From an uncultured Eubacteriales bacterium (GTDB taxonomy: Bacteria > Bacillota > Clostridia > Oscillospirales > CAG-272), in contig CAKSZH010000008.1 of the NCBI GenBank assembly GCA_934525675.1, positions 21,914 through 85,913 of the forward strand: DNA of 64,000 nt. The letters run 5' to 3'. How positions within the stretch are numbered: the first letter of the stretch is position 1; every line of letters begins with the position of its first letter. Shown here piece by piece: positions 38,514 to 57,065 of this stretch. The notes under the pieces are model-generated. The model had not been told where the DNA came from, made no database searches, and saw nothing but the letters and a program-made list of their open reading frames with translations. The translations under genes were made by a program, and so were the position numbers.

Positions 38514-38656
38514 GTCGGGGCTTCGCCCCGAACCACCGGGAGGGAGAAAGAGTCGTGGCTCCGCCCCGAACCCCGGGAGGGCGAAGAAAGTCGGGGCTTC
38601 GCCCCGAACCCCCGGAGGGAAAATGTCGTGGCTCTGCCCCGAACCCCGGAAAGGGG
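38514..38656. repeat. four tandem ~35-bp hairpin-containing repeats
   Basis: GTCG(G/T)GGCT(T/C)(C/T)GCCCCGAACC.CCGG(G)A(G/A)GG occurs at about 38514, 38552, 38590 and 38625. Copies 1 and 3 contain the CGGGGC-TTC-GCCCCG hairpin. Confidence 0.8.
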
Positions 38657-38710: not shown

Positions 38711-38736
38711 AAAAGGGGACGCTTGTCCCCTTTTTT
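38711..38736. terminator. bidirectional Rho-independent terminator between the ECF-S gene and the rlmI-like gene
   Basis: AAAAGGGGAC-GCTT-GTCCCCTTTTTT, with A-tract and T-tract on either side. A second palindrome AAAGGGGACTTTTTGAAAAAAGTCCCCTTT lies at 38650-38679. Confidence 0.8.
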
Positions 38737-40637: not shown

Positions 40638-40666
40638 TTGACAATTTGTCGATATTATGGTATGAT
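40638..40666 (+). promoter_or_regulatory. strong candidate sigma-A promoter of the ABC-type locus
   Basis: TTGACA (40638-40643), 17-nt spacer, TGgTATGAT extended -10 (TATGAT at 40661-40666). It sits in the only clearly AT-rich stretch of the 800-bp gap. Confidence 0.6.
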
Positions 40667-40852
40667 ATTTCTATCAATTTGGGCATTTTGTAACGTGAAT
40701 TCCCGGAGCGGACGTTCACGGGTCGGTCTGCGGCTGCCGTCAGTACGGCAGCCGCAGTATTCTGCCGGTATCCCGGTGCGGCTGTTTCCGACGCGATTGC
40801 CCGCGGGCGGTGTGTTTCCGTGCCGCTTCCAAAACAAGCAGGAGGAAAACTG

Positions 40853-43800
40853 ATGAAGAGATCCAGAATTCAGAGAGCGCTGGCGCTGATCCTCACCCTG
40901 ACTTTTCTGATCGGAGGTTCCGCGACCGCGGTCCACGCGGCGGACGCGTCCGAAAAGAATCCGACGGTGACAGACAAGACCATCAAGGATTATGAGGCGC
41001 AGCTCAATACCGACACGTACAGCGCTTACCTTGCCGCACGCAAGGATAAATACGGTAAGCCTGCCGAGGAGATCCTCGTTGATGCCGCAGAGGCATTGAA
41101 TCCGGGAAAGACGGATTCGGAGTACGAGATCACCGATAAATACGGAAGAAACGGCGTTTACACGCCGGAGACCGGCACCACCTCCTGGACCTTCCGTGTT
41201 CCGGAGTCCGGCTGGTACAGCATTACCATTGAATATTACCCCGTCGAGGGCAAGAACACCGCCATTGAGCGTGAGTTCTACATCAACGGCGAGGTCCCGT
41301 TCGACGGAGCATATTCGCTGTCCTTCCCGAAGGTGTACGATTTTGTATACAAAAATGCCGCATACCGTATCACCGACAAGACCAAGACCGCCGCGGAGCT
41401 GCTCTCCCGCGCGGAGGAGCTTGGGCTGACGGCGAATACGGAAAACCGCACCGACGGCACCTATGTTGTGTTTGAAATGCCCGAGTACTGGACGGAAGCC
41501 CGCCGGCAGTTCCTCTCGGAGGAGCTGGGACTCCGCTTCTTCCAGACGGATACCGAGGGCAATGAGATCCGCCCGACCAGCGCCCAGACACCGCGCTGGA
41601 GCGAATACTCCCTGCACGATTCTTCCGGATATTCCGCAGAGAACTTCATGTTTGCCCTGGACGAGGGCGACGTGACCATCTCTCTTGCCGGCGTCAATGA
41701 GGCGCTTGTGATTTCCTCCTTCCGTCTGACCCCGTACGGAAGTTACATCAGCTACGCGGATTACCTTGAAAAATACAAGGATGAGAAGCAGGGAACGAGC
41801 GTGGTGAAGCTGGAGTCGGAATATGCCTCCTCCACCTCCTCCAACACCGTTTATGCGGTCGAGGACCGCACGAGTGCCGCAACTTCTCCCGCTGACCCGT
41901 CGAGAACGCTTCTCAATACCATCGGCGGTGAGCAGTGGCAGAATGCGGGACAGTTCATCACCTATAAGTTCCGCGTGGACAACAGCGGACTTTACAACAT
42001 CGACGCCCGTTACCGCCAGAACACGCTGGAAGGTCTTTATGTCTGCCGTAACCTTTACATATACAGCGACGGACTGGAAGAGGGTGCAAAGGGATACTAC
42101 AACGGAATTCCGTTTGCCGAAGCGACCGAGCTGCGCTTCAGGTACGACAGCACATGGCAGACCGGTCATCTGTCGAACGGGACCGACGCTCTTCAGTTTT
42201 ACTTTGAGGCAGGCGTGACCTACACGATCCGCCTGGAGGTGACGCTCGGCTCCATGAGCGAGATCATCCGGAGCATGGAGGCGGCGCTGACCGCTCTTGA
42301 CGCGGATTACCTGACCATCCTCAAACTGACCGGACCCAGCCCCGATACCTACCGTGACTACGGTTTCGCACGTCTGATCCCCTCGACGCTGATCGATATG
42401 TATAATCAGATGGAAGTGCTCGAGAATGCGGCAAAACAGTTCCGCGCACTCGCAGGAACCTCCACTGCCAATATCGCAACGCTTGAAACTATTGCAAACC
42501 TCATCCGCACCATGGTCTCCGACCCCGAAAACGAGGTCGCGAAGAACCTTGACAGCCTCAAGTCCAACCTTGGTACGCTCGGTACTTTTATCGGTGACGC
42601 GAAAACCCAGCCGCTTCAGCTGGATTACCTGATCGTGCAGGGTAACGACAAAGCGTTGCCGCGCGCAGAGGAGAACTTCTTCCGCAATTTCCTGCATGAA
42701 TTCCTCAGCTTCTTCTGGAGCTTCTTCCGTGATTACAACCAGATGGGAAGCATGGTGAAAGGCGGTCAGAACGACACCATTGAGGCGTGGGTGGCATACG
42801 GCCGCGACCAGTCTCAGGTCATCCGGAACCTGATTACCAACGATTTCACTCCTGTTTACAACCTGCCCGTCGCACTCAAACTGGTCACGGCAAGCACCCT
42901 GCTTCCGTCCATCCTGGCGCAGGCGGGACCGGATGTTTACCTCGGTCTTGCACAGGCGGACGTCATCAACTATGCAGTCCGCGGCGCACTGATCCCGATC
43001 GAAAACATGTCCGGCTTTGACGACGCTCTGAAGGATTTCAATGACGCGGCGATGCTGACGATCGGAATCGAAGACTCCGCCGGGCAGATGCATTACTACG
43101 GACTTCCCGAGACCGAATCCTTCTACATGATGTTTGTCCGTCTGGACATTCTCTCCAGCATCGGCGTGGAAATTCCCAAGACGTGGGATGACATTTACGC
43201 CGCGCTTCCCGTGCTCGGTTACAACAACATGGAGCTTGGTATGACGGCTTCGACGCTCGGACTTTCCCAGGCGACGGACTACAAGTTCCTGCTCTACCAG
43301 AACGGCGGTGAGCTGTATGCCGACGGCGGCATGCGGATCAATCTGGATTCCCCGAAGGCGCTGTCCGCTTTTGAGACCATGTGCGACTTCTACACCGCTT
43401 ACTCCTGCCCTTACGCATACGACGCGGCAAACCGTTTCCGTTCGGGCGAAATGCCGATCGTCATTGCCCCCTATACCGAGATGTATAATAAATTGAAGGT
43501 TTTTGCAACCGAAATTGAGGGACTCTGGGCAATGGTTCCCCTGCCGGGCACCGTGGACAAGGACGGCAACATCAATAACTGCTCTATCGCATCGACCACC
43601 GCGGTGGTCATGGTCAAGGGCGTTGCAGAGGAGCGGAAGGAATCCGCGTGGAACTTCATGAAGTGGTACACCGGTGCCGACTGCCAGATTGCATATTCCT
43701 ACGGCATGGCGGCTGTCCTCGGTGAGTCCGGCAAGCAGCCGACCGCAAACCGTACCGCGCTTGCGAGCCTGCCCTGGACGACCGATGAGTACAAAGAAGT

Positions 43801-44245
43801 CGCCAAGCAGTACGAAAATCTGGCGGCAATCCCGAACTACCCCGGTTCCTATTACCTCGACCGTTACGTCAACTTCGCATTCCTCTCCGCGTACAACAGC
43901 GGCGCGGATGCAAGAAGCGCAATTCTTTCCTATATTAATACTATCAATACCGAGATCCGCAGAAAGCGCGAAGAGTTCGGACTCGAAACGCTGGAAATCG
44001 GTCAGACGCTCGCCGAAAAGCGCATGGGACAGGCGGAGGATCTGATGGATGAGCTGAACGGCTCCGCATATACGGGTCTCGTGTCCGCGGCAAAGTACGC
44101 GATTGATAACAACAACATCAAGCTGCTTGGCGAATCCGCCGCCGCTTTCCTTGCGGCTGCCGAAAAGGGCGGCTCGGATGCAGACCGGCTGAAACAGATC
44201 TCCGTATATCTGACGCAGGCGGCAGAAGCCCTGAGTAAATACTGA
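40853..44245 (+). CDS. giant extracellular solute-binding protein: Sec signal, ~600-aa extension with two CBM-like beta-sandwich segments and a helical region, then a family-1 sugar SBP fold
   Basis: RBS AGGAGG. Signal peptide ...GGSATAVHA/AD with no lipobox Cys. The segments SWTFRVPESGWYSITIEYYPVEG and ESEYA...GQFITYKFRVDNSGLYNIDARYRQ resemble CBM6/35-type modules. The C-terminal ~480 aa look like a CUT1 sugar SBP (TIEAWVAYGRDQ..., KTWDDIYAALPVL, NFMKWYTGADCQ). Confidence 0.8.
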   Translation: MKRSRIQRALALILTLTFLIGGSATAVHAADASEKNPTVTDKTIKDYEAQLNTDTYSAYLAARKDKYGKPAEEILVDAAEALNPGKTDSEYEITDKYGRNGVYTPETGTTSWTFRVPESGWYSITIEYYPVEGKNTAIEREFYINGEVPFDGAYSLSFPKVYDFVYKNAAYRITDKTKTAAELLSRAEELGLTANTENRTDGTYVVFEMPEYWTEARRQFLSEELGLRFFQTDTEGNEIRPTSAQTPRWSEYSLHDSSGYSAENFMFALDEGDVTISLAGVNEALVISSFRLTPYGSYISYADYLEKYKDEKQGTSVVKLESEYASSTSSNTVYAVEDRTSAATSPADPSRTLLNTIGGEQWQNAGQFITYKFRVDNSGLYNIDARYRQNTLEGLYVCRNLYIYSDGLEEGAKGYYNGIPFAEATELRFRYDSTWQTGHLSNGTDALQFYFEAGVTYTIRLEVTLGSMSEIIRSMEAALTALDADYLTILKLTGPSPDTYRDYGFARLIPSTLIDMYNQMEVLENAAKQFRALAGTSTANIATLETIANLIRTMVSDPENEVAKNLDSLKSNLGTLGTFIGDAKTQPLQLDYLIVQGNDKALPRAEENFFRNFLHEFLSFFWSFFRDYNQMGSMVKGGQNDTIEAWVAYGRDQSQVIRNLITNDFTPVYNLPVALKLVTASTLLPSILAQAGPDVYLGLAQADVINYAVRGALIPIENMSGFDDALKDFNDAAMLTIGIEDSAGQMHYYGLPETESFYMMFVRLDILSSIGVEIPKTWDDIYAALPVLGYNNMELGMTASTLGLSQATDYKFLLYQNGGELYADGGMRINLDSPKALSAFETMCDFYTAYSCPYAYDAANRFRSGEMPIVIAPYTEMYNKLKVFATEIEGLWAMVPLPGTVDKDGNINNCSIASTTAVVMVKGVAEERKESAWNFMKWYTGADCQIAYSYGMAAVLGESGKQPTANRTALASLPWTTDEYKEVAKQYENLAAIPNYPGSYYLDRYVNFAFLSAYNSGADARSAILSYINTINTEIRRKREEFGLETLEIGQTLAEKRMGQAEDLMDELNGSAYTGLVSAAKYAIDNNNIKLLGESAAAFLAAAEKGGSDADRLKQISVYLTQAAEALSKY

Positions 44246-44327
44246 GGAGGCAAAGACAGTGAACAATCTGATAGCTGCAAAAGCTTCCGCCCGCCGCGCG
44301 GCAGAAAGGACGGGTGACTGATTCGAT

Positions 44328-45272
44328 ATGGAAAAAGTACAGAAAAAGCGAGCTGTCCAGAGAAGCGAAATGAGCCGTGCCGCATGGACGTGGAAGGAAA
44401 TGAAGCGCAACTGGGTCGCGTATCTGATGATCCTGCCTTATGTCGCCATTTTCACCCTGTTTACGGTGGTGCCGGTCATCTTCTCCATCATCTTCAGCTT
44501 TACCAACTTCAACATGCTGGAGATGCCGGATTTCATCTGGTTTGAAAACTACCTCAACCTGTTCTTCAAGGACGACATTTTCCTGATCGCCTGTAAGAAC
44601 ACCCTGATCTTCGCGGGCGTCGTCGGACCGACTTCCTATTTCCTGTCGCTCATCGTGGCATGGTTCATCAATGAGCTGGCTCCCAAGGTCCGCGCGATCG
44701 TCACCCTGATCTTCTACGCGCCGTCCATTTCCGGTTCCGCGTACCTGATCTGGGCAACCCTCTTCTCCTCCGACTCCTACGGCTGGGTCAACTCCACCCT
44801 GATGTATCTGCGGATTATTGACGCACCGATCGCCTGGTTCCAGAACGCATCCTACATCATGCCGCTTTGTATTGTCGTTGCGCTGTGGACCTCTCTCGGC
44901 ACCTCCTTCCTCGCGTTCATCGCGGGCCTGCAGGGAATCGACAAGGCACAGTATGAGGCGGGCGCTGTGGACGGTATCCGCAACCGGTGGCAGGAACTCT
45001 GGCACATCACCCTTCCCAACATGAAAGGTCAGCTCATGTTCGGCGCGATCATGTCCATCACCGGTTCCTTCGGTTTCGGTGCGATTGTTACCGCGCTCTG
45101 CGGAATGCCTTCGACCGATTACGCAGGTCACACGATCATGCACCATCTGGAGGACTACGCGAACAACCGCTATGAGATCGGTTACGCTTCGGCGATCGCC
45201 GTGGTGCTGTTCGCTGTCATGCTGTTCTCCAACTTCTTGGTCAACAGACTTCTTGCAAAGGTAGGTGAGTGA
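44328..45272 (+). CDS. carbohydrate ABC transporter permease (MalF-like), pair A
   Basis: 314 aa, 6 TM. EAA-loop YEAGAVDGIRNRWQELWHITLPNMK. Confidence 0.88.
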   Translation: MEKVQKKRAVQRSEMSRAAWTWKEMKRNWVAYLMILPYVAIFTLFTVVPVIFSIIFSFTNFNMLEMPDFIWFENYLNLFFKDDIFLIACKNTLIFAGVVGPTSYFLSLIVAWFINELAPKVRAIVTLIFYAPSISGSAYLIWATLFSSDSYGWVNSTLMYLRIIDAPIAWFQNASYIMPLCIVVALWTSLGTSFLAFIAGLQGIDKAQYEAGAVDGIRNRWQELWHITLPNMKGQLMFGAIMSITGSFGFGAIVTALCGMPSTDYAGHTIMHHLEDYANNRYEIGYASAIAVVLFAVMLFSNFLVNRLLAKVGE

Positions 45273-46149
45273 CGTGGCGAAGAAACTGAGAACAAGAAAT
45301 CACAAGGTCGTCCTGTCACGTTCCTACGGCGGTGATGCTTTCATCACGGTCCTGCTCGTCATCCTCGGCGCATTCATGTTCCTGCCGATGCTTTACACCA
45401 TCATGCAGTCACTCAAGCCGCTGGATGAACTTTTCCGTTATCCTCCCCGCTTTTATGTGACCAACCCGACACTTTCCAACTTCACGGATCTGTTCACGTT
45501 GCTCAATCAGTCGTGGGTGCCGTTCTCCCGTTACATTTTCAACACGGTGTTCACCACGTTTGTCGGGACTTTCGGGCATCTGTTCATCGCGTCGATCTGT
45601 GCGTACGCGCTGGCAAAGATCCAGTTCCCGGGCAGAAAGTTTGTGTTCAAGACCATCGAATTGTCTCTGATGTTCAACTCGACGGTTACCACGACCATGA
45701 GCTTTATCATCATGAAGTACCTCCACCTGATCGATTCCTACTGGGCAATCATCATTCCCGCGTGGGGCTCGACGCTCGGTCTGTACCTGATGAAAAACTT
45801 CATGGATTCTTCCATCACCGACTCGGTGCTGGAATCCGCGCGACTTGACGGTGCAAGCGAACTCCGTACCTTCTGGGTTATCGCAATGCCGATGGTCAAG
45901 CCCGGCTGGCTGACCCTGATTGTGTACTGCTTCCAGTCGCTCTGGAACGCGGGTTCGTCCATCTTCATCTATTCCGAACAGTACAAATCGTTCAACTACG
46001 CCATTCAGCAGATCACCGCGGGCGGCATCAAGCGTTCCGGCGCAAGTGCCGCGGCAACGGTCGTTATGATGCTGGTGCCGATCATCATCTTTGTCATCAC
46101 TCAGTCCAGTATCATTGAAACCATGGGCTCCAGCGGTATGAAGGATTAA
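45265..46149 (+). CDS. carbohydrate ABC transporter permease (MalG-like), pair A
   Basis: 294 aa. EAA-loop LESARLDGASELRTFWVIAMPMVKP. The GTG start overlaps the upstream stop. Confidence 0.88.
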   Translation: MSDVAKKLRTRNHKVVLSRSYGGDAFITVLLVILGAFMFLPMLYTIMQSLKPLDELFRYPPRFYVTNPTLSNFTDLFTLLNQSWVPFSRYIFNTVFTTFVGTFGHLFIASICAYALAKIQFPGRKFVFKTIELSLMFNSTVTTTMSFIIMKYLHLIDSYWAIIIPAWGSTLGLYLMKNFMDSSITDSVLESARLDGASELRTFWVIAMPMVKPGWLTLIVYCFQSLWNAGSSIFIYSEQYKSFNYAIQQITAGGIKRSGASAAATVVMMLVPIIIFVITQSSIIETMGSSGMKD

Positions 46150-46159
46150 GGAGGAAACA

Positions 46160-48352
46160 ATGAAAATGAGTCAAAGAAAACTGATTTCCGTTGTCTGCAT
46201 TGCGTTTGTCCTCCTGTTTGCGGCATCCGTTCCTGTCAGCGCGGCTTCGGCTTATCAGACTTACACCTATTCCATTTCCGGCGAGATGCTGTATTCGCCG
46301 GACGCGTACACCGCGACGCTCAGCGCCGACTACGCATATATGGGACTCGACGTGACCGACTCCAGCTGGAACAGCCAGCTTTCCAGCCCCTCCGATATGG
46401 TGGTGGACGATGAAAAGAACGTCTACATCGTGACGAGAGGCAGTAAGACCGACGAGGGTTGCGTTGTCGCACTCGACCCGTACCTCAAGGTGCGTTTCGT
46501 CATCTGCGAATTCATCAACGAGCAGGGACTGGTTGACCGCTTCAACCGTCCGCAGGGCATGTTCGTGTCGAAGGACTACATCTGGGTCTGCGACACGGAA
46601 AACCAGCGGATCGTGGTGTTTGACCGCGAGGGCAATTTCGTCAAGCAGCTCTGGAAGCCCGAAAGTCAGCTCTTCCGGGATGACGCCGGATACACCCCCA
46701 TTGCCATCGCGGTGGATAAGTACAACCGCGTGTACGTCGTTTCCAACTCGACGAGCGAAGGTATCATCATGATGACCGAGGATGGGGAGTTCACCGGATT
46801 CGTCGGTGCGCAGGCAACGACCATGTCTACCTGGGAGATCCTGATGCGTCGGTTCCAGTCCTCGACCCAGAGAGAGAATTCCGACTCCAAGGCATCCACC
46901 GAGTACCGCAACGTTTCCATCACCGAAGAGGGCTTCATTTACGCGACGGTTGACGTCAAGAGCGATTCCGACCTCGAGGGTGAGATCGAAAACGGTATGA
47001 CCTCCGGTTCTCTGACCGGTGTGTATTCCCCCGTCAAGCTGCTCAACTCCAAGGGTACGGAGATTATGAAGCGGAACGGCTTCTGGCCCCCGGCAGGCGA
47101 GGTGGACATTGATTCTCTGGATGCGTCCGAAAAGATCGGCGTTTCCAAGCTGACGGATGTCGCGGTCGGTCCCGAAAGAACCTGGACGACCATCGACACC
47201 AAGCGTAACCGTACCTACACCTACGACTACAACGGCAACCTGCTCTTCGCCTTCGGCGATAACAGCGCCATGCTCGGCGGCATCGGAAACGTCGTTGCGG
47301 TTGTGTATCAGGGCAACTCCATGCTGATCCTGGACGGCGGCAATACCAACAGTATCACCGTTTACGACCGGACGGAATACGGAGATCTGATTGTCAAGGC
47401 GCTCAACGCCGAAAACAACATGGAATACGACCTTGCGGTGGAATGCTGGAAGGGCGTGCTCCAGAGAAACTCTAACTATGACGCGGCGTACGTCGGTATC
47501 GGCAATGCGCTTTACCGCGACGGCAGATACAAGGAATCGCTTGATTACTACGAAGCCGCATACGACACGGAGAACTGGTCGAAATCCTGGACGGAGGTTC
47601 GCCGGGACTGGATGTCCAAGTACGTCCTGATCTTTGTGGCGATCATTGTCGCCGTGATCTTTGCCTGGGCGAAGTTCCTCAAGTTTGCAAAGAAAGTCAA
47701 CAAGGCAGCCACGGTGGACGGCAAGGCGCGCAAGACCTTCGGGCAGGAACTCCTGTACGGGTTCTACGTGATATTCCATCCCTTTGACGGCTTCTACGAC
47801 CTCAAGCATGAGCACCGCGGTTCGGTGCGTGCGTCCTTTGTGTTCATCGGCGCCGCCATTCTCACCTTCTTCTATCAGGCGGTGGGTGTCGGCTATGTCA
47901 TGAATCCGACGAGAGAGTTCTCCTCGCTTCTGACGCAGGCGCTGTCCGTTCTGGTTCCGCTGGTTCTGTTCATGGTGGCAAACTGGTGCCTCACCACCCT
48001 GTTTGACGGCGAGGGCAGCCTCAAGGACATCTTCATTGCGTCCTCCTATTCGCTGCTTCCCATCCCGATCCTGATTATCCCCGCGACCATTCTGTCCAAC
48101 TTCGTGACTGTGACCGAGTCTTCTCTGATTACGATGTTTACGGTGATCGCGTTCATCTGGCTCGGTATCCTGCTCTTCCTCGGCACCATGGTGACGCACG
48201 ATTATTCCATCGGGAAAAATTTCCTTACGATTTTCGCAACGGTCGTCGGCATGGTCTGCATCATGTTCCTTGCGATCCTGTTTGTGACGCTGATCGGTAA
48301 GCTGGTCAGCCTGGTTGCCAATATCGTAACGGAATTGCAATTCCGGACCTGA
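46160..48352 (+). CDS. signal peptide + NHL-repeat beta-propeller + TPR + C-terminal Yip1-type 5-TM domain protein
   Basis: RBS AGGAGG and signal ...VPVSA/AS. NHL-like blades (SPSDMVVDDEKNVYIVTRG; RPQGMFVSKDYIWVCDTENQRIVVFDREGNF; TPIAIAVDKYNRVYVVSN). TPR (YDLAVECWKGVLQRNSNYDAAYVGIGNALYRDGRYKESLDYYEAAY). Yip1-like membrane domain (FYVIFHPFDGFYDLKHE..., 5 hydrophobic helices). Confidence 0.8.
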   Translation: MKMSQRKLISVVCIAFVLLFAASVPVSAASAYQTYTYSISGEMLYSPDAYTATLSADYAYMGLDVTDSSWNSQLSSPSDMVVDDEKNVYIVTRGSKTDEGCVVALDPYLKVRFVICEFINEQGLVDRFNRPQGMFVSKDYIWVCDTENQRIVVFDREGNFVKQLWKPESQLFRDDAGYTPIAIAVDKYNRVYVVSNSTSEGIIMMTEDGEFTGFVGAQATTMSTWEILMRRFQSSTQRENSDSKASTEYRNVSITEEGFIYATVDVKSDSDLEGEIENGMTSGSLTGVYSPVKLLNSKGTEIMKRNGFWPPAGEVDIDSLDASEKIGVSKLTDVAVGPERTWTTIDTKRNRTYTYDYNGNLLFAFGDNSAMLGGIGNVVAVVYQGNSMLILDGGNTNSITVYDRTEYGDLIVKALNAENNMEYDLAVECWKGVLQRNSNYDAAYVGIGNALYRDGRYKESLDYYEAAYDTENWSKSWTEVRRDWMSKYVLIFVAIIVAVIFAWAKFLKFAKKVNKAATVDGKARKTFGQELLYGFYVIFHPFDGFYDLKHEHRGSVRASFVFIGAAILTFFYQAVGVGYVMNPTREFSSLLTQALSVLVPLVLFMVANWCLTTLFDGEGSLKDIFIASSYSLLPIPILIIPATILSNFVTVTESSLITMFTVIAFIWLGILLFLGTMVTHDYSIGKNFLTIFATVVGMVCIMFLAILFVTLIGKLVSLVANIVTELQFRT

Positions 48353-48379
48353 CCGCCAAAGCTGAAAGGAGATACAGAG

Positions 48380-51300
48380 ATGAAAAAATCCTATAAGATC
48401 ATTTCCGTGCTTCTGGCGGTTGTGTGTGCGGTCGGCGGGTTCGGCGGTCTGTTTACCGTCGGTACCCATGCCGCAACTACCGATTCCGAAGTCCAGATCA
48501 AGTATGACAACAGTTATTATGCATATCGGTTCAACTCTCCGTCGGAGAAGCTGAACGTGATGACGCCGTACATCGAATCCGATGAGTACAGACTCTACGT
48601 CAACGATGTGACCGGCGAGGTCGCGCTTTACCAGAAGACGACCGGCGAGACCATTTTCTCCAACCCTTATGATGTGTCCGCCTCCAAGGGCTCCAATGAA
48701 ACCAAGTCCCAGCTGATGTCCCAGATCATTGTGCAGTACAAGGAAAACAGCTCGACCGACAGCGTTTCCCAGTACATGTACAGCTTTGAGGAAGCAACGC
48801 TGCGCGATCAGGTGCGCGTCAAGAACATCAAGAACGGTGTCCGTGTGGAATACGTCATCGGACAGGAGACCACCAGAAAACTGGTGCCGCGCATGATTTC
48901 CAAGGACCATTTCGAGCATATGATTCTCGATCTGGTCAAGGAAGGGCTCGGCGATTCCAGACAGGGCAAGAAGGACGCACTCCGCTTTGAGTCCATGTAC
49001 GACCTCCGGAGCTACGCACGGGCGACGTCCGAAGCGGAACGCAAGGCGTTGCTGGCAACCTACCAGGTACTCCAGAACAACCGCGACTTTGAGTTCTACA
49101 TCTTCACGGAAAACGCCTCGGAGGGCGAGATCAACTGGGTCGAATCTCAGATCAAAGCATACTGCCCGAACTACACCTTCGAGCAGATGGAAGCCGACCA
49201 CGCGGAATGTATGTACGAGGAAACCAAGACCGAGTCCCCCGTATTCAAGATGGCTCTTGAATACACGCTGGATCAGAACGGGCTTTCCGTCACGCTTCCC
49301 GCCAACGGTCTGCGTTACAACTCCGGCAAGTACACGTTGGAAAACATCGCCGTGCTTCCTTACATGGGAGCGGGCAACTCCGCGAATACCGGTTACATCT
49401 TTTATCCGGACGGCGCGGGCGCGCTCTTTGACTTCGATTCGCCGGATACCAAATCGACCACGACCATCCGCGGACAGGTCTACGGCAAGGATTTCGCTTA
49501 CCACGATATTTCCACCGGTAAGTATCAGCAGTCCCTGACCAGCGCGGTATTCGGCCTGGTGGAGGAACAGGTCTATTACACCTATTCCTACGAGCAGACC
49601 TTTTACTCGCAGGACGATGTTCGCATCGAAACGCACGACAATTTCACGGTCTCCCGCACGCAGAAATCGCTGGAAAAAATTATGGAGGAGATCAACAATC
49701 CCGCCAATAACATCACACTGACCAGTGAGATCAAGACTACCTCCTACAAGAACGGTTTCTTCGTTATCATTGAGGAGGGCGAGTCGCTTGCGTCGATCGA
49801 GGTGTTCCGCCCCGGCGCACAGAGCAATTACAACTGCGCACGTGCGTACTTCAACCCGCGTCCGAAGGATACCTACGAGCTGACCGACTCCATTTCCGCA
49901 AAGGACGACGACCGCAAGAAATCCACCTGGACAGTCGTTTCTGACCGGAAATACACCGGTAACTTTACCTTGCGCTATGTGATGCTTTCCGATCCGGCTC
50001 TTGCCGCACAGGCGGGCGTCAGCTCTTACTACGAGCCGTCTTACATCGGCATGGCGCAGGTCTACCGCGATTACCTCATCCGCAATGAAGCGCTCACCCG
50101 CCTGACCGAGAAAGACGTGGACAGCGAGCATATCCCGCTTTACATCGAATCCTTCGGCACCATTGAGGCGACCGAGCAGTTCCTCTCCATCCCGGTCACG
50201 GTTCACAAGGCACTCACGACTTTTGACAATGTCGCGCAGATGTACAGGGACCTTTCCGAGGAGGGGATCACCAACGTCAACTTCCGCCTGACCGGCTTTG
50301 CCAACGGGGGCCTCTGGTACACCGTACCGGCGGCGCTCAAGTGGGAAAGTGCAGTGGGCGGCAAGAAGGGCTTCCGGGAGCTGGTGCAGTATTCCGAGAA
50401 AGTGAAGGCGTCCGGAGGGAACCTCGGTATTTACCCCGATTTCGACTTTGCTTACATCAACAAGAATACCGCGACCGACTCGACTTCGATGAAGAAGCAC
50501 GCGGTGCGTACCATCGACAACCGGTACTCCTCCAAGCGGTATTACAGCGCAACCAAGCAGAAGTACATCAGTTACTTCCAGTACGCGCTCTCTCCCGCAT
50601 ATTTCAGTTTCTTCTATGAGAAGCTGGTCGGCAACTACGACGATTACGGCGTCAAGAATATTTCGATCGCGTCGCTCGGTTCTTCGCTCAACTCGGATTT
50701 CGACAACGACGAGCCGTACAACCGCGAGGACAGCAAGTCCTACACGATCGAGGCGTTCCGCTACCTTTCCATCGACAAGGGTTACTCCGTAATGACAGAC
50801 GTCGGAAACTCCTACGTCTGGAAGTACGCGGATCATCTGCTGAACGTGGCGCTGGATTCCAGCCGCTTTACGGTGGCTTCCGCATCCGTTCCGTTTATGG
50901 GAATCGTTCTGCACGGTTATATTCAGTTTGCCGGCACCGCTATGAACATGGAAGGCAACATGGATTACGCAGTGCTCAAGTCCATCGAAAACGGTGCGTC
51001 CCCGTATTTCACGCTGTCCTATCAGAACACCGACCTGCTCAAGGAAGACGAATATTACAGCCGGTACTATTCGGTCCGCTACGACATCTGGAAGGATGAT
51101 CTGATCCGGATTTACCGCGAGATGAACGAGGTGCTTGCCGATGTTCAGCTCAAGCAGATCGTCAATCATGAGATCCTGACCGGTGTCCGTGTACTCGATG
51201 CCGGCGAGATCGCTGCTCTGATCGAAAAGCAGCTCGCAGCCACCGAAAAGGCAGAAAAGAATGCCGCGCTCAATCGGGAATACGAAGCGATCCGCACGCT

Positions 51301-52039
51301 TGCAGAGGCGATGGAATACCTCCGCGGCTCGGTTGACAAGGTCTCCTCGCTGTATTCTTCCGCACTGGTTATTCTGAAGCAACTTGACCGCGATTATGAA
51401 ACGCTCCTGTCCGACCTGGCAAAACTCGATAAGGTGCAGAGCGACCGTAACCGCGCAACCGTCAAGCGTGACGCGACCAAGATGGTGACGACCTATTACC
51501 GCCTTGTTTCGGTCTGCAAGCAGATCGACGACTATGTGAAGAAGGATCAGCAGATCTACGATAAGGTGACTGCCACCGGCGAGATCCTGCCCGATGTCCT
51601 GAAGGAACTGAACGGCTATCTCGACACGATTCGGGTGTTTACCGACAAGCTGGCAAACGGTGAGGACTACACCGGCACCAACTTTACGGGAACCGGTTTC
51701 CCGGCGCTTGCAAAGTCCGCTTACGACGGAACAGTCAGTGCCGTTTCCAGGTACTTCACGGAAGAAGAGATCCGGAACGGCGCGGTGATCCCGTCCGAGG
51801 ACGACTCCGGTTCCGATGAGGATACCGGCAACAACGAGAACGGTTCGGATACGGATCAGTCGCTCATCTGTGACAACGGCAATATTGTCGCGGTCACCTA
51901 TGGCGAGAGAAACGGAAACAACATCGTTGCTTACAAGGTCTTCATTCTCAATTACAACAACTTCACCGTCAAGGTGGAATACAACGGCGTGACATACTCT
52001 ATCCCCGGACAGGGCTATGTCGTAATCAAGATGGATTAA
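48380..52039 (+). CDS. 1219-aa secreted or N-anchored protein of unknown function (resembles what I recall as DUF5696; unverified)
   Basis: RBS AAAGGAG. N-terminal hydrophobic signal/anchor. Long beta-rich region, then a coiled-coil-like segment of about 200 aa (EIAALIEKQLAATEKAEKNAALNREYEAIRTL...), an acidic linker, and a small C-terminal domain. Confidence 0.75.
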   Translation: MKKSYKIISVLLAVVCAVGGFGGLFTVGTHAATTDSEVQIKYDNSYYAYRFNSPSEKLNVMTPYIESDEYRLYVNDVTGEVALYQKTTGETIFSNPYDVSASKGSNETKSQLMSQIIVQYKENSSTDSVSQYMYSFEEATLRDQVRVKNIKNGVRVEYVIGQETTRKLVPRMISKDHFEHMILDLVKEGLGDSRQGKKDALRFESMYDLRSYARATSEAERKALLATYQVLQNNRDFEFYIFTENASEGEINWVESQIKAYCPNYTFEQMEADHAECMYEETKTESPVFKMALEYTLDQNGLSVTLPANGLRYNSGKYTLENIAVLPYMGAGNSANTGYIFYPDGAGALFDFDSPDTKSTTTIRGQVYGKDFAYHDISTGKYQQSLTSAVFGLVEEQVYYTYSYEQTFYSQDDVRIETHDNFTVSRTQKSLEKIMEEINNPANNITLTSEIKTTSYKNGFFVIIEEGESLASIEVFRPGAQSNYNCARAYFNPRPKDTYELTDSISAKDDDRKKSTWTVVSDRKYTGNFTLRYVMLSDPALAAQAGVSSYYEPSYIGMAQVYRDYLIRNEALTRLTEKDVDSEHIPLYIESFGTIEATEQFLSIPVTVHKALTTFDNVAQMYRDLSEEGITNVNFRLTGFANGGLWYTVPAALKWESAVGGKKGFRELVQYSEKVKASGGNLGIYPDFDFAYINKNTATDSTSMKKHAVRTIDNRYSSKRYYSATKQKYISYFQYALSPAYFSFFYEKLVGNYDDYGVKNISIASLGSSLNSDFDNDEPYNREDSKSYTIEAFRYLSIDKGYSVMTDVGNSYVWKYADHLLNVALDSSRFTVASASVPFMGIVLHGYIQFAGTAMNMEGNMDYAVLKSIENGASPYFTLSYQNTDLLKEDEYYSRYYSVRYDIWKDDLIRIYREMNEVLADVQLKQIVNHEILTGVRVLDAGEIAALIEKQLAATEKAEKNAALNREYEAIRTLAEAMEYLRGSVDKVSSLYSSALVILKQLDRDYETLLSDLAKLDKVQSDRNRATVKRDATKMVTTYYRLVSVCKQIDDYVKKDQQIYDKVTATGEILPDVLKELNGYLDTIRVFTDKLANGEDYTGTNFTGTGFPALAKSAYDGTVSAVSRYFTEEEIRNGAVIPSEDDSGSDEDTGNNENGSDTDQSLICDNGNIVAVTYGERNGNNIVAYKVFILNYNNFTVKVEYNGVTYSIPGQGYVVIKMD

Positions 52040-52051
52040 GGAGGTGCGGAT

Positions 52052-53020
52052 ATGACTAAAGGTGAACCTGTCAAGAACACAATGAATACCGCAAGTCCTG
52101 TGAAGAAAAAGAAGAAAAAAGCGGCGTCGCTGGACCGGAAAAAGGCTCGCGCCGGCTGGCTCTTCGTTCTTCCCTTCGTCATCGGTCTGATCGTCATTTA
52201 TCTTCCGCTGATCTACAATTCCATCTCGCTCAGCTTCTGCACCAATACCAGCACCTCCGCCGGCACGGTTTATACCTTCGTCGGATGGGAGAATTACCGT
52301 AATGCACTCTTGAAAGATACCCAGTTCGTGCCGACCCTGCTCTCAGGGCTCGGCGAACTGGTACTCCAGATCCCGGCGATCGTCATTTTCGCTCTGTTCA
52401 TGGCGGTGCTCCTGAACCAGAAGATGGCGGGTCGTGCCGCGTTCCGTGCGATCTTCTTCATCCCGGTCGTGATTTCAACCGGTATTATGGAGTCGATCAA
52501 TGCCGCGGACGTGGTGACCGGTTCCTCGCAGGCGGGAGTCGATACCGGTGCGGACACGTCAAACAGTATCGTCAACGTCATGGACCTGGAACGATTGTTC
52601 AGCAACATGAAGATCGGCAGTCAGCTTGCCACTTACGTGGTGGACATTGTCAATAACATTTATGACATCGTCAACAAGGCGGGCGTGCAGATGCTGATCT
52701 TCCTCGCAGGTCTTCAGGCGATCTCTCCCGCAATCTACGAGTCCTGTAAGATCGACGGCGCGACCGGTTGGGAAACCTTCTGGAAGATCACCTTCCCGAT
52801 GATCAGCCCGATGATCCTTGTCAACGGGGTGTACACCATCATTGACTCCTTTACATCGGAAACCAATACCGTGATGGCGTATATCAGCGAGATTTACAGT
52901 ACGAGTGAAGTCAAGAGTTCGGCAATGGCGTGGATTTACTTCCTGATCGTCATGCTGATCGTCGGTATCATCGCCGCGATCATTTCCGCCAATGTGTTCT
53001 ATCAGCGGCGGGAACGCTGA
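52052..53020 (+). CDS. carbohydrate ABC transporter permease (MalF-like), pair B
   Basis: 322 aa. EAA-loop YESCKIDGATGWETFWKITFPMISP. RBS AAGGAGG upstream. Confidence 0.88.
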   Translation: MTKGEPVKNTMNTASPVKKKKKKAASLDRKKARAGWLFVLPFVIGLIVIYLPLIYNSISLSFCTNTSTSAGTVYTFVGWENYRNALLKDTQFVPTLLSGLGELVLQIPAIVIFALFMAVLLNQKMAGRAAFRAIFFIPVVISTGIMESINAADVVTGSSQAGVDTGADTSNSIVNVMDLERLFSNMKIGSQLATYVVDIVNNIYDIVNKAGVQMLIFLAGLQAISPAIYESCKIDGATGWETFWKITFPMISPMILVNGVYTIIDSFTSETNTVMAYISEIYSTSEVKSSAMAWIYFLIVMLIVGIIAAIISANVFYQRRER

Positions 53021-53037
53021 GAGAGGAGGAGTCAGTT

Positions 53038-54219
53038 ATGAACGCACAAAACACAAGTCCGAAGGTCGTGCGGGAATCCAAGAACCGGATCCGAGTGGAC
53101 TTCGAAAGAACTCCTCTCAAGGACCGGCTCAAGGCGAAATTTCTTAATGTTGCCTTCCTTTCCAAAGCGGTGGTCTACATTTTCCGCCTGCTCCTTCTGA
53201 TCGGCATTTCCTACGTGGTGCTGTATCCGTTCATCGCAAAGATCTGCGCGTCCTTCATGGCAGGGCAGGACTTTATCGATGCCACGGTCCGGCTGATTCC
53301 CAAGAATTTCACGCTGGAACAGTATCAGAAGATTATTTCGGAGCTTGGGTATTTCGACGCCTTCAAGAACACGTTTATCCTTTCCTTTACCTGTGCGGTT
53401 CTGCAGACCTTCATTTGCTGTCTGATCGGCTATGGTCTTGCAAAGTTCCGCTTCAAGGGAAACAAGATTCTGTTCCTTCTGGTGATGCTGACCATGATTA
53501 TTCCTCACCAGACGCTCCGGCTTTCCATGTATTACAACTTCCGTCATTTTGACATCCTCGGTATCTTCCAGCTACTCGGCGGCGGCGGATTCTCCATTCT
53601 CGGCGGTATCAAGTCGGATGCGGGCGGATTCCTCGGGGCGCTTTACAACTTCAACGAAGCGGTCAAGGGAGCGATCAATATCGCGCCGCATACCATTTCC
53701 CAGAGCACCGGTGCCATTGTCTACACCTCCATCTGGGATGCGGGCGGTCTCAACCTGACCAATACCTACGCGCCGCTGATCCTGCTTTCCATGACGGGAC
53801 TTGCGTTCAAGAACGGTCTGTATATTTTCCTGCTCCGTCAGTTCTTTTGCGGAATCCCGGATGAATTGGAAGAGTCTGCGTATATCGATGGCGCGGGAAC
53901 CTTCCGGACCTTTGTCCAGATTATTCTTCCGATCTCCATTCCGATGATGATTACGGTGTTCCTGTTCTCCTTCTGCTGGCAGTGGACGGACAACTTCTAC
54001 ACCAATGTCTTCTTCACAAGCAATTCCAAGATCAAACTGCTTGTGAACATCGTCGGTGTGCCGCGATCCATTCTGAATGGGACGAATTACGGTGTCAAGT
54101 ATCAGTCGGCGATCAAGAATACCTGCGGTCTGATGATTATCGCTCCTCTTGTGGTAATCTACCTCTTCCTGCAGAGATATCTGGTCGAAGGCATCGAACG
54201 GTCCGGTATCACGGGTTGA
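53038..54219 (+). CDS. carbohydrate ABC transporter permease (MalG-like, with extra loop), pair B
   Basis: 393 aa from ATG 53038 (RBS GAGGAGGAG). EAA-loop EESAYIDGAGTFRTFVQIILPISIP. Confidence 0.88.
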   Translation: MNAQNTSPKVVRESKNRIRVDFERTPLKDRLKAKFLNVAFLSKAVVYIFRLLLLIGISYVVLYPFIAKICASFMAGQDFIDATVRLIPKNFTLEQYQKIISELGYFDAFKNTFILSFTCAVLQTFICCLIGYGLAKFRFKGNKILFLLVMLTMIIPHQTLRLSMYYNFRHFDILGIFQLLGGGGFSILGGIKSDAGGFLGALYNFNEAVKGAINIAPHTISQSTGAIVYTSIWDAGGLNLTNTYAPLILLSMTGLAFKNGLYIFLLRQFFCGIPDELEESAYIDGAGTFRTFVQIILPISIPMMITVFLFSFCWQWTDNFYTNVFFTSNSKIKLLVNIVGVPRSILNGTNYGVKYQSAIKNTCGLMIIAPLVVIYLFLQRYLVEGIERSGITG

Positions 54220-54248
54220 TCCCGCGAAACGGATATCCGAATCATCAA

Positions 54249-54290
54249 GAGCCCCGCACACCTTGGTGTGCGGGGCTCTTTGACGTTTTG
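54249..54290 (+). terminator. Rho-independent terminator ending the ABC-type locus
   Basis: 14-bp stem GAGCCCCGCACACC/GGTGTGCGGGGCTC followed by TTTGACGTTTT. Confidence 0.75.
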
Positions 54291-54527
54291 AGCGAGCGGG
54301 GTGCAGGCGGTACTGTGTTCCCCGATCGGGAAAAATGACAGGGAATCGGTGTAGGGCAACGGCTTTTCCGGTGAAAAATTGTATGCAGAAATTTCCGGGG
54401 AGTATTTATCGGCATCCGTGCGGTACGGGGCGACTTCCGCCCGCCCCGCGGCACATTCTGCGCCAGGGTGCGGACTTCCGCCGCCCTGTACCGCACGTCG
54501 CCTACGCCCACCGCATGAAATCCCTGC

Positions 54528-55490
54528 TTACTCCGTTTTTTGTATTCCCTCCGATGTTGCGCCCGTTTTGGGGAGGCTCTGCTCCTTGTCCTGCGGATCT
54601 TCCCACAGATTCCACGGGTACCGGTCCATGGGCGGGGCGCTGCATACCTCCACCCGTTCTCCGGTCACCGGATGCAGGAACGAGATCCGGTGCGACCAAA
54701 GTGCCGCCGCGGGACTTTGGTTGTCCCTTCCACCGTACTTGCCGTCCCCCGCAAGCGGACAGCGGCGGGCGGCAAACTGCGCCCGGATCTGGTGCGTCCG
54801 CCCCGTGTGAAGCAAAACGCGGCAGAGGGAAAGCGGATTTCCTTTGTCATTGATCCGGCTGTCCTGTACGCGGTAGTCGAGAACCGCCCGCTTGGCGCCC
54901 TTGCGCTCGCCTTTTACGACAAATACCTTGCCGCGCGTGCGGTCGAAGAACAGGAAGTCTTCCATCCGTCCCTCGGGCGGCTCCGGAATTCCTTCCGCAA
55001 CCGCGAGATATTCTTTTTCAAATCTGCCGTCGTGCGCGGCAATGGCTTCGGAGAGCTTTCCCGTGACCTTCGGGTCACGGGAAAAGAGCATTGCCCCGCC
55101 CGTCGTGCGGTCCAGCCGGTGTACCGAGCCGATATACCCGCCCACCTGCGCTTCCAGAAGCGAGAGAATGTCCCGCCCGTCCGCGCTTTTTTCGGAGAGA
55201 ACGCCGATCGGTTTCTCCGCTACGAGCAGATACGCGTCACGGTAAAGAATTTTCAGGGAAGCCACTGTGCCGGAAGTCGCCGCACCGGAAGCAATTTTAA
55301 CGGGACCGGGGTTGACGGATTTTTTCGTAGATGTGGTGCCTGCCGCAACAGCGCGATTTCCCGGAAATTTGTCGTTCTCCGTCACGGAACCGTTTTCCGC
55401 AACGGCGTCAGTCGTAACTTTATTGCTCCCGCCCGTGCCGTTCTTCGTTCGGGCAGATACCTGATACAATTGTTCTTTTTTCTGCTTCAT
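54528..55490 (-). CDS. RluA-family pseudouridine synthase with ~85-aa low-complexity N-terminal region
   Basis: Core ILYRDAYLLVAEKPIGVLSE, GSVHRLDRTTGGAMLF (catalytic Asp), HTGRTHQIRAQF. The ATG overlaps the upstream stop (ATGA). Confidence 0.85.
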   Translation of the reverse strand: MKQKKEQLYQVSARTKNGTGGSNKVTTDAVAENGSVTENDKFPGNRAVAAGTTSTKKSVNPGPVKIASGAATSGTVASLKILYRDAYLLVAEKPIGVLSEKSADGRDILSLLEAQVGGYIGSVHRLDRTTGGAMLFSRDPKVTGKLSEAIAAHDGRFEKEYLAVAEGIPEPPEGRMEDFLFFDRTRGKVFVVKGERKGAKRAVLDYRVQDSRINDKGNPLSLCRVLLHTGRTHQIRAQFAARRCPLAGDGKYGGRDNQSPAAALWSHRISFLHPVTGERVEVCSAPPMDRYPWNLWEDPQDKEQSLPKTGATSEGIQKTE

Positions 55491-56323
55491 TTGTCGCAGT
55501 TCCTCATTTTGTGCCGGAAGAGCAGTGCCGCCGCAATCGCCGCCAGAACAAGATACGCGCAGACGGTCAGAAGATCCGGCACGAGGCGGTCTCCTGTCTG
55601 AAGATTTCCCGTGATAGTCTGCCTTCCGAGATTGACAGCCGGATAAAAGGGGAAAAAACGGCAGACGGCTTCAAAATCCCCCATGGTTTCAAGCGGCATC
55701 CACGCACCGCTCATCAGCCCGCCGACCGAAAGGATTGCGGACGACACGCCGGGCGCCGCGTTTTCGTTCAGCGCACTGCCGATGAATATTCCCGCCGCAA
55801 CACAGAAGAGAATCATCGGCAGATAGGCAAGGAAAGACAAAAGAACCTTTCCGTAGGTGACGGTCATTTCCTTCGTCAACACCCTCCCGAATTCGTCGAG
55901 CGCATACCCGTACACACCCGTAATGCCGGCGACGGTCAGCCGGCTGCCCGAGGTGAGGAGCAGGATCAGCGCGGTCAGATAACAGAGAACGACCTGTGCA
56001 AGTCCGACGACGGTTCCGGGAATCGCATAGCCGAGCAGATAATCCGATACGGTCATGCGGGTCGTGTAAAGCCGCGTGAGAAACGCGGTTGACCGGTCGC
56101 GGGACACGAGCAGTGCCATAAAGAGAATAACAAACAGGAAGGAAAACACGCAGATTCCCGGCGCCAGCCGGTACATCTCAAACCAGTAGGTCTGCCCGGT
56201 GAACCCTGCAATCATCTGAAACAAAAGCAGCATCAGAACGGGGAATCCCACACAGAAGATGTAACTGAGCGGCGAGCGCAAAATTTCCATGAGATTTCTT
56301 TTTGCAAAAATCAATGCACGCAC
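55487..56323 (-). CDS. ABC-2 type exporter permease
   Basis: 278 aa, 6 TM. The opening MRALIFAKRNLMEILRSPLSYIF is typical of the ABC-2 family. Confidence 0.85.
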   Translation of the reverse strand: MRALIFAKRNLMEILRSPLSYIFCVGFPVLMLLLFQMIAGFTGQTYWFEMYRLAPGICVFSFLFVILFMALLVSRDRSTAFLTRLYTTRMTVSDYLLGYAIPGTVVGLAQVVLCYLTALILLLTSGSRLTVAGITGVYGYALDEFGRVLTKEMTVTYGKVLLSFLAYLPMILFCVAAGIFIGSALNENAAPGVSSAILSVGGLMSGAWMPLETMGDFEAVCRFFPFYPAVNLGRQTITGNLQTGDRLVPDLLTVCAYLVLAAIAAALLFRHKMRNCDK

Positions 56324-56324
56324 G

Positions 56325-57065
56325 TCAGTGCACCTCCCCTCTCACATATGCGACAAACGCGTCTTCAAAACGGTCCTTGCCGGCACGCACCCTGAGCTCT
56401 TCCGCCGTGCCGAGCGCGGTGAGCTTTCCGTCTGCGAGGATCCCGATCCGGTCGGACAGCTCCTCCGCTTCTTCCATGTAATGCGTCGTCAGGATGACGG
56501 TGACGCGCCCGTGCAGGGAAGAAATGACGTCCCACAGCTCGCGCCGGGCAAGCACGTCAAGTCCGAGCGTCGGCTCGTCGAGAAACAGCACCCCGGGGTC
56601 GGAGATGAGCGCCATGGCGATGGACAGGCGGCGCATAAGTCCTCCGGACAACGTTTTCGCCGTGTTTTTGAGGTGCCCCGTCAGCCCGAACCGCTCCGCC
56701 AGTTCCATGGCGTGCGCCTTTGCCGTTTTTTTGTCCTCCCCCGCGATCCGCGCCATGAACACGAGATTTTCGAATACCGTCAGCTTTTCCGCGACCGCAG
56801 TTTCCTGCATGGAGATGCCGATGATCTTTTTGACCGCTTCGCCCTCCGTGCGGATACTGTGTCCCTCAATCCATGCATCTCCCGCCGTGGGGGCGATCAG
56901 ACCGGACAGCATCCGTACCGTGGTCGTTTTGCCTGCGCCGTTGACGCCGAGCAGGGAAAAGAGTTCCCCGCGATGCACACTCAGGTCCAGCCCTCTGACC
57001 GCTTCGCGTCCGCCGTAGCGCTTGCAAAGTCCCTTGATGACGATCGCGTCAGTCAATGCTTCCAT
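56325..57065 (-). CDS. ABC transporter ATP-binding protein
   Basis: Walker A GVNGAGKTT, signature LSGGLMRRLS, Walker B VLFLDEPT. Confidence 0.92.
   Translation of the reverse strand: MEALTDAIVIKGLCKRYGGREAVRGLDLSVHRGELFSLLGVNGAGKTTTVRMLSGLIAPTAGDAWIEGHSIRTEGEAVKKIIGISMQETAVAEKLTVFENLVFMARIAGEDKKTAKAHAMELAERFGLTGHLKNTAKTLSGGLMRRLSIAMALISDPGVLFLDEPTLGLDVLARRELWDVISSLHGRVTVILTTHYMEEAEELSDRIGILADGKLTALGTAEELRVRAGKDRFEDAFVAYVRGEVH

Follow-up and report, generated by a model that had tools for sequence, protein, structure and literature searches.

A conserved seven-gene cassette of Bacillota with two ABC permease pairs and a GH129-like DUF5696 protein, a candidate cell-surface machine for carbohydrate capture and import

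The 64,000-nucleotide stretch analysed here (contig CAKSZH010000008.1, assembly GCA_934525675.1, from an uncultured Eubacteriales bacterium; hereafter 'the window') carries a cassette of seven close-set genes on the forward strand (40853-54219), bounded by a promoter at 40638 and a hairpin terminator at 54245-54283 (Table 1). The genes encode, in order, a giant solute-binding protein (SBP), a first pair of ATP-binding cassette (ABC) permeases (pair A: A1 and A2), an NHL-TPR-Yip1 membrane protein, a large protein of the family DUF5696 and a second permease pair (pair B: B1 and B2). The intergenic spacers are, from 5' to 3', 82, -8, 10, 27, 12 and 17 nt, the negative value being the overlap of A1 and A2, and GGAGG-type ribosome-binding sites precede most of the seven genes. 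An earlier note, made from the DNA letters alone, had described seven tightly packed same-strand genes between one promoter and one strong terminator. The coordinates, spacers and hairpin all confirm this, and Pfam and NCBIfam bear out its assignment of the SBP, permease and NHL-TPR-Yip1 domains.

Table 1. Coordinates of the cassette features in the window and, in the last four rows, of the lipoprotein SBP genes adjoining related cassettes (positions in the respective loci).
Feature	Position	Strand	Details
Sigma-70-type promoter	40638-40666	+	TTGACA-17 nt-TATGAT, extended TG; 11/12 matches
5' leader	40667-40852	+	~186 nt; perfect 13-bp hairpin at 40728-40757, by folding
Giant SBP gene	40853-44245	+	1130 aa
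Permease A1 gene, MalF/UgpA-like	44328-45272	+	314 aa; BPD_transp_1 (Pfam), GlcT/UgpA-like (NCBIfam)
Permease A2 gene, MalG/UgpE-like	45265-46149	+	294 aa, GTG start; Pfam and NCBIfam
NHL-TPR-Yip1 protein gene	46160-48352	+	730 aa; Pfam
DUF5696 protein gene	48380-52039	+	1219 aa; Pfam
Permease B1 gene, MalF/UgpA-like	52052-53020	+	322 aa; Pfam and NCBIfam
Permease B2 gene, MalG/UgpE-like	53038-54219	+	393 aa; Pfam and NCBIfam
Intrinsic terminator	54245-54291	+	17-bp G+C-rich hairpin then TTTGACGTTTT; by folding
Lipoprotein SBP gene, locus L081	16552-18057		
Lipoprotein SBP gene, locus L084	1555-2931		
Lipoprotein SBP gene, locus L086	1660-3042		
Lipoprotein SBP gene, locus L087	10096-11511		

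The control signals are well defined. In a 19-kb scan the promoter has the joint-top score (two sites reach 11/12) and is the only one of the two on the plus strand. Its sequence is kept in the closest relative, locus L001 (CAKVOU010000006.1), although nearby intergenic DNA has diverged. The same is true of the leader, where the hairpin and the promoter-proximal 45 nt are retained in L001 and the neighbouring sequence has diverged. This hairpin occurs once in the window and may be an operator or a regulatory leader; neither the leader nor the window as a whole matches any Rfam family. At the other end, the terminator hairpin with its T-run folds with a free energy of -43.7 kcal/mol (z -6.25), and none of 200 shuffled sequences folds as well.

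All four permeases contain BPD_transp_1 according to both Pfam and NCBIfam, and the two permeases with EAA loops that characterise a CUT1 sugar importer are present twice, once in each pair. Among 72-79 sequences for each permease, distant ones included (A1, n = 78; B1, n = 76; B2, n = 72), conservation of E, G and P in the EAA loop is 98-100% in all four. Because these loops are conserved, both pairs look like working ATPase-coupled translocators. The identity between pair A and pair B is 24-26% (24% for A1 and B1), and they therefore do not stem from a recent duplication. In B2 one loop is enlarged by a variable insertion of some 60 aa (residues 181-240). We considered this insertion as a conserved docking site and rejected the idea: no other part of B2 is so poorly conserved (0.17-0.25 identity), and distant homologues lack it.

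The giant SBP is a multidomain protein in which Pfam limits SBP_bac_1/8 to residues 683-949. An AlphaFold2 (AF2) model (pLDDT, the predicted local distance difference test score, 81; pTM, the predicted template-modelling score, 0.77) gives the order signal peptide, two beta-sandwiches (~74-300 and ~318-464), a helical bundle (466-584), a CUT1-type SBP fold (589 to ~1016) and a helical tail (1020-1129). The extracytoplasmic SBP_bac_1 (cluster D-like) fold of CUT1 importers is thus present as one domain only of the protein. With Foldseek this domain matches oligosaccharide SBPs (E ~1e-16 to 1e-13, TMt 0.72-0.81) of the sophoro-oligosaccharide, cyclo-isomalto-oligosaccharide and MalE types (including 5ysb and 5ci5). 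The two N-terminal beta-sandwiches can be classed from the model and from their relatives as carbohydrate-binding modules (CBMs) of the CBM6/35-like type: divergent members repeatedly give weak matches to CBM_35, CBM_6, Golvesin_C and GH115_C, and one homologue exceeds the CBM_35 threshold. No lipobox was found in any giant SBP examined, these proteins having cleavable-looking signal peptides or N-terminal anchors instead.

The 730-aa protein consists of a signal peptide, an NHL beta-propeller, a TPR region, a transmembrane (TM) helix (489-507), a K/R-rich cytoplasmic loop and a Yip1 domain with five hydrophobic segments in a TM scan (residues 536-706; Pfam 52.8 bits against a cut-off of 28.6). 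The NHL and TPR regions match PDB chains. In other lineages the protein is split into an NHL protein ending in one TM helix and a basic tail, followed by a Yip1 protein of 206-210 aa. The signal peptide, the K/R-rich stretch after helix 489-507 and these split versions together place the propeller and the TPR region outside the cell.

To our knowledge, YknW of Bacillus is the only bacterial Yip1-family protein that has been studied. It is needed for, or modulates, the assembly of the ABC transporter YknWXYZ (PMC4887032). The two systems are alike in that a bacterial Yip1-domain membrane protein is encoded together with an ABC transporter. They differ in their partners, since YknYZ, an exporter of the MacB type, has a membrane-fusion protein as partner, whereas the cassette encodes type I importer permeases, and in the fusion or adjacency of the cassette's Yip1 domain to an extracellular NHL propeller. 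Pfam finds neither MacB nor membrane-fusion protein genes in the cassette or its flanks, so that the resemblance to YknW is one of role only.

The 1219-aa protein had been left without an assigned function. Its size stands, but it is a member of the uncharacterised Pfam family DUF5696 (PF18952; E 1.6e-139, 466.6 bits against a cut-off of 25.6), and it resembles glycoside hydrolase (GH) family GH129 both by fold and by profile. The AF2 model, made with 51 homologues (pLDDT 78, pTM 0.69), shows N-terminal beta-sandwich domains, a (beta/alpha)8 barrel and a C-terminal beta-sandwich with an alpha-helical insertion of about 200 aa (residues ~940 to ~1135-1165; window ~51200-51870). Foldseek against the PDB places 5opq (DagB) first (E 8e-18) and also finds NagBb (5wzp, E 5e-16), TMt being 0.59-0.67 for these matches; the top matches, 5opq and 5wzn/5wzp/5wzr, range from E 8e-18 to 2e-13. 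DagB has three domains, a beta-sandwich, a (beta/alpha)8 barrel and a second beta-sandwich (PMC5698469), and the DUF5696 model has the same layout, which is the architecture of GH129. A single-sequence search of the PDB with the protein gave zero matches, and a clade-level profile (profile A2) gave coiled-coil artefacts only, which were discarded. A profile built from divergent DUF5696 members with the helical insertion removed (profile A5) matches DagB (E 4e-12) and NagBb (E 2e-10), so that the relation appears to be one of remote homology and not of shared fold alone.

By these comparisons DUF5696 is a separate family remotely related to GH129 (about 10% identity) and not a member of it. The earlier statement that the locus contains no GH of a known family has to be revised in view of this distant likeness. 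The three-domain architecture is shared with characterised GH129 and GH129-like enzymes, the alpha-N-acetylgalactosaminidase NagBb of Bifidobacterium bifidum and the 3,6-anhydro-D-galactosidase DagB of Zobellia. In contrast to these, DUF5696 has invariant motifs of its own (PDGSG, YGxD and NSDFD), a long helical insertion in the gut clade and no clear match at the nucleophile position, and it always lies within an ABC-importer operon. Throughout the family there is little or no variation at D344 (in PDGSG), D371 (in YGxD), D773 (in NSDFD, which follows barrel strand 4), N856 and E870.

The two best-conserved DUF5696 motifs, TIDNRYSS..YSATQQ.YVSF.QLAISP (residues 691-740, window 50450-50600) and LNSDFDEDEPYNRED (residues 765-785, window 50672-50735), coincide with the only long stretches of the barrel with pLDDT <50 in the AF2 model. 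They may form loops of the active site, or else an interface with a partner, ordered only within a complex. The helical insertion is missing from the Butyrivibrio and Paenibacillus proteins, and total DUF5696 length in the gut clade varies from 1208 to 2043 aa (for example, in loci L035, L046 and L078), while the SBP and Yip1 proteins keep a constant length. Cluster representatives of DUF5696 reach 2545 aa. We asked whether the longest relatives are domain fusions, but in four of them Pfam gives DUF5696 alone, and the extra length of one (P0436) is an A/E/K-rich helical stretch. Diversifying pressure may be acting on the insertion, which could serve as a spacer or stalk. The length of the insertion does not vary together with that of the SBP tail, which had been looked at as a hint of contact (Spearman -0.20, p 0.33, n 26); both are missing in the distant branch, which counts as one event.

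To see how widely the arrangement occurs, we sought relatives in one genome per GTDB species using the two DUF5696 motifs. At least 563 stretches encode relatives, nearly all of them in uncultured gut and rumen Clostridia (Eubacteriales or Oscillospiraceae). The seven window proteins were then compared by tblastn with 78 related loci, the gene order being read where the contig extends far enough. The order SBP-A1-A2-YIP-DUF-B1-B2 is identical in 78/78 loci. The same arrangement is found in 10/10 further sites in Clostridia and Bacilli with differing flanks; these ten distant contexts are a sample, all positive, and not a census. They include cassettes found by tblastn of plasmids, on pNP243 of Butyrivibrio fibrisolvens D1 and on a replicon of Paenibacillus cellulosilyticus, where DUF5696 identity is only ~24%. 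Beyond these two cassettes, seven divergent DUF5696 proteins that were looked up all lie in the same arrangement (7/7, including Neobacillus kokaensis, Cohnella luojiensis and several assemblies). A search with the DUF5696 core among 1.84 billion cluster representatives gave 4231 clusters (50% identity) at E<=1e-3 and 1623 at E<=1e-30. Judged by this distribution, the cassette is much older than the gut Clostridia clade, and, since the same order recurs in all 78 related loci with sufficient contig reach, the seven-gene arrangement is far beyond what chance would give. The earlier expectation that homologues of the two large genes would occur together with doubled permease pairs was thus borne out in every informative locus.

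This conservation all but removes the view that two ordinary, independent sugar importers happen to lie beside two unrelated surface-protein genes, a view we strongly disfavour: the low identity between the pairs and the resemblance of each to a complete MalFG-type unit would suit it, but not an order that is invariant in 78 loci and 10 sites across Clostridia and Bacilli, with ~24% DUF5696 identity and unrelated flanks, nor the small or overlapping gaps, single promoter and single terminator.

Permease A2 is the best-conserved protein of the cassette, at 70-79% identity in most of the 78 loci. Clustering all flanking open reading frames (ORFs) of these loci revealed no conserved eighth gene, whether ATPase, GH or regulator. 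The genes for SufC/SufB or RlmI that lie upstream in subsets of the loci were rejected as cassette members, as they reflect clade synteny only. Comparison of the window with L001 shows an uneven divergence. Identity is 98% for the RlmI-like and ABC-2 ATPase proteins of the flanks, against 82% for DUF5696, 84% for the SBP, 88% for the Yip1 protein and 86-93% for the permeases; an RluA-type gene is only ~60% identical. At the level of these identities, this suggests faster evolution or recombination of surface-exposed parts.

The genomic company of the cassette is richer in cultured carriers. A MalK/UgpC-type ATPase lies directly upstream of it in Paenibacillus and Neobacillus, and LacI, AraC-type response regulators or histidine kinases adjoin it in cultured carriers. 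The neighbouring GHs vary by locus (GH43; GH26+GH113+GH9; GH2+GH38; GH95+GH10; GH30+GH35). Enzyme, transporter and regulator, which together define a Gram-positive polysaccharide utilisation locus (PUL), are all present in the Butyrivibrio, Cohnella, L086 and L088 loci. The window locus falls outside this definition: the transporter is there, DUF5696 is only a candidate enzyme, and there is no regulator in or beside it, as the earlier note had said. That note had also remarked on the lack of an ATPase. This is correct for the MalK/MsmX type, which Pfam does not find in the locus or anywhere in the 64-kb window, but not for ABC ATPases as a whole, because the ATPase of an ABC-2 exporter (56325-57065) lies 2 kb downstream. 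It is common in Firmicutes for the ATPase to be encoded apart from the importer, and the missing ATPase is not odd here, because a MalK/MsmX-type ATPase adjoins the cassette in Paenibacillus and Neobacillus.

The reading of two translocators with one recognisable SBP held for the window and the 78 close loci. Four cassettes of the sister branch with split NHL/Yip1 proteins (L081, L084, L086 and L087) do have a neighbouring lipoprotein SBP of conventional type, 458-501 aa long. These four SBPs are mutually homologous (24-31% identity). The fifth split cassette (L088) has no such neighbour, and neither the window nor any of the 78 close loci contains a second, conventional SBP. As a recurrent eighth gene, the conventional SBP could account in an ordinary way for the second translocator of the sister-branch species.

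The standard ABC sugar importer has one binding protein, two permeases and an ATPase. By its permeases and SBP, and as far as transport function can be read from sequences and models, the cassette looks like a CUT1-type importer (TC 3.A.1.1; for example, MalEFGK2, MsmEFGK and the Listeria Lin1841 sophoro-oligosaccharide system). It has MalF/MalG-like EAA permeases, an oligosaccharide-type SBP fold and, in Bacilli, an adjoining MalK/MsmX-type ATPase. It departs from every described member in four ways: it has two permease pairs per operon; its SBP, which bears CBM-like and helical modules, is 2.5-3 times as large as usual; this SBP has no lipid anchor; and the NHL-Yip1 and DUF5696 proteins are extra conserved components between the pairs. 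Glycan-binding protein, surface glycosidase and transporter are encoded together as one unit in the Sus-like utilisomes of Bacteroidota and in Gram-positive PULs. The likeness to the utilisomes is one of concept only, and in cultured carriers the cassette sits among GHs and regulators as in a Gram-positive PUL; it has no SusC/SusD, TonB-dependent transporter or outer membrane, and no components are shared. In the searchable literature, outside of which lie supplementary tables and subscription journals, we found no paper on DUF5696, PF18952 or the combinations of parts (Yip1+NHL+SBP, GH129+ABC). There is likewise no characterised transporter with this gene order in that literature, and the description of the locus as an uncharacterised multi-component system can be retained.

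Our preferred reading, to which we would give a probability of about 0.55, is that the locus is one operon for a Bacillota cell-surface machine that captures carbohydrates, probably processes them, and imports them. It rests on the operon anatomy, on the fixed order across lineages and on the ATPase, GH and regulator neighbours in cultured carriers. The giant SBP would hold the glycan through its two CBM6/35-like modules and deliver an oligosaccharide through its CUT1-type SBP domain. The DUF5696 ectoprotein, presumably retained at the membrane surface, would trim the chain or at least grip it; N-terminal signal peptides or anchors are present, and one DUF5696 homologue has a lipobox. The NHL-TPR-Yip1 protein may be a membrane-embedded scaffold tying the extracellular parts to the transporters, a role suggested by the precedent of YknW as an ABC transporter assembly factor (PMC4887032). 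Pairs A and B, as two separate MalFG-type translocators, would import the products, powered by a shared MalK/MsmX-type ATPase encoded elsewhere in the genome.

The fixed seven-gene arrangement extends from Bacilli of the soil to Clostridia of the gut and rumen, of which hundreds of uncultured ones carry it. If its parts form one machine, Gram-positive bacteria would have an equivalent of the Bacteroidota utilisome. Such a machine would provide a first function for DUF5696 and for bacterial NHL-Yip1 proteins, and could explain complex-glycan uptake by many abundant uncultured gut Clostridia. The cultured carriers (B. fibrisolvens D1, P. cellulosilyticus KACC 14175, N. kokaensis and C. luojiensis) make the proposal directly testable.

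Several points weigh against the preferred reading. We know of no type I importer with four different permeases or with one SBP for two translocators. Contact among the cassette products is something that we infer from their genes. DUF5696 remains constant while the neighbouring GH families change, which is unexpected for a substrate-specific enzyme. Moreover, the window and the 78 close loci have no adjacent GH of a known family, regulator, ATPase or second SBP, and their flanks are housekeeping genes. Finally, the model and the conserved residues make DUF5696 a candidate hydrolase only, as its nucleophile is not clearly matched. The GH129 nucleophile, Asp486 of DagB and Asp435 of NagBb, is the one catalytic residue common to both enzymes (PMC5698469). 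In hmmsearch and hhalign alignments, whose confidence is low in this region, DagB D486 pairs with Ser768/769, 4-5 residues before D773, and the DUF5696/GH129 alignments stop before the acid/base region. D773 does lie in the same post-beta4 loop as the paired serines.

A bolder form of the preferred reading joins the GH129-like and NHL-Yip1 proteins as integral subunits of a dual-translocator ABC importer, a stable utilisome-like super-complex on the Gram-positive cytoplasmic membrane in which DUF5696 would replace the SBP for the second translocator. We put this forward only tentatively, with the odds clearly against it. If true, a super-complex with handover by DUF5696 would be a new architectural class of ABC importer and a founding function for >4000 protein clusters.

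The idea of the earlier note that one or both large proteins act as an alternative receptor for pair B belongs here as a rival, one that we think rather improbable. In its present form, DUF5696, alone or with the NHL propeller, would be a catalytically inactive, GH-like receptor for translocator B, and the giant SBP would serve pair A. Its gene occupies an SBP-like slot directly upstream of pair B in every locus, and there is only the one SBP for two intact translocators in the window and the close loci. The failure of the GH129 nucleophile to align with a conserved carboxylate in DUF5696 would also be expected of a receptor, as would the constancy of DUF5696 beside varying GHs. However, the invariant carboxylates and the highly conserved post-beta4 motif NSDFD-EPYNRED resemble an active site, the lipoprotein SBP that recurs as an extra gene in the sister branch suggests that an ordinary SBP can serve pair B, and gating of a type I ABC importer by anything other than an SBP fold is not known to us. 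On the sequences and models at hand, a processing role for DUF5696 is at least as likely as a receptor role.

Slightly less probable again is that the cassette of gut Clostridia recycles the cell's own envelope glycan (wall polysaccharide or capsule), with DUF5696 cutting it and the two translocators recovering the fragments. As such a function would lead one to expect, the neighbours of the cassette in the 78 close loci are housekeeping genes (RlmI, SufCB, alanyl-tRNA synthetase, a sigma factor), and it has neither a regulator nor a known GH there. Its near-consensus promoter fits too, and a helical insertion of variable length in DUF5696 would suit a spacer reaching through the wall. The cultured carriers point the other way, since there GHs for plant polysaccharides and regulators of the LacI or AraC type accompany the cassette, as is typical of sugar-utilisation loci. 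Two species also have two different DUF5696 proteins each (Paenibacillus hamazuiensis, P0300 and P0306; Paenibacillus sp. 32352, P0287 and P0292), which would fit substrate-specific nutrient systems if every one of these proteins lies in a cassette of its own.

That the cassette exports or assembles an extracellular polysaccharide is very improbable: large extracytoplasmic proteins with helical stalks and the exporter membership of the Yip1 precedent YknW might be cited for it, but the BPD_transp_1/EAA-loop permeases, the SBP fold and the MalK/UgpC-type ATPases encoded in cis all mark a type I importer, and the contexts examined show no genes for glycosyltransferases or polymerases alongside the cassette.

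The flanks of the cassette in the window are unrelated housekeeping genes, mostly on the opposite strand. They include genes for an RlmI-like methyltransferase, an energy-coupling factor (ECF) S component, a type III pantothenate kinase, an RluA-type pseudouridine synthase and a pyridoxal phosphate (PLP) enzyme. An ABC-2 exporter pair on the minus strand lies 1.3 kb downstream, with a 278-aa membrane protein (55487-56323) and the 246-aa ATPase already mentioned (LSGGL signature). This is the only ABC ATPase of the window and it has no MalK-type C-terminal domains. Its synteny with the cassette is seen in L001 only, and the pair (55487-57065) is a separate exporter outside the cassette.

Two long ORFs on the minus strand, opposite the SBP gene (40655-44410, 1251 codons) and the Yip1 and DUF5696 genes (46112-51382, 1756 codons), were rejected as genes. 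They are shadow ORFs, because the codons TTA, CTA and TCA are nearly missing from the cassette. The frequency of A at third positions is 8.5% in the cassette against 11% in the other genes of the window, and homologous loci also show long antisense ORFs (median longest, 1018 codons).

Some further hairpins were seen upstream of the cassette. Two identical G+C-rich hairpins (TCGGGGCGAAGCCCCGA) lie 76 nt apart on the minus strand (38515-38531 and 38591-38607), downstream of the ECF S-component gene, and a bidirectional terminator-like hairpin is present at 38711-38734.

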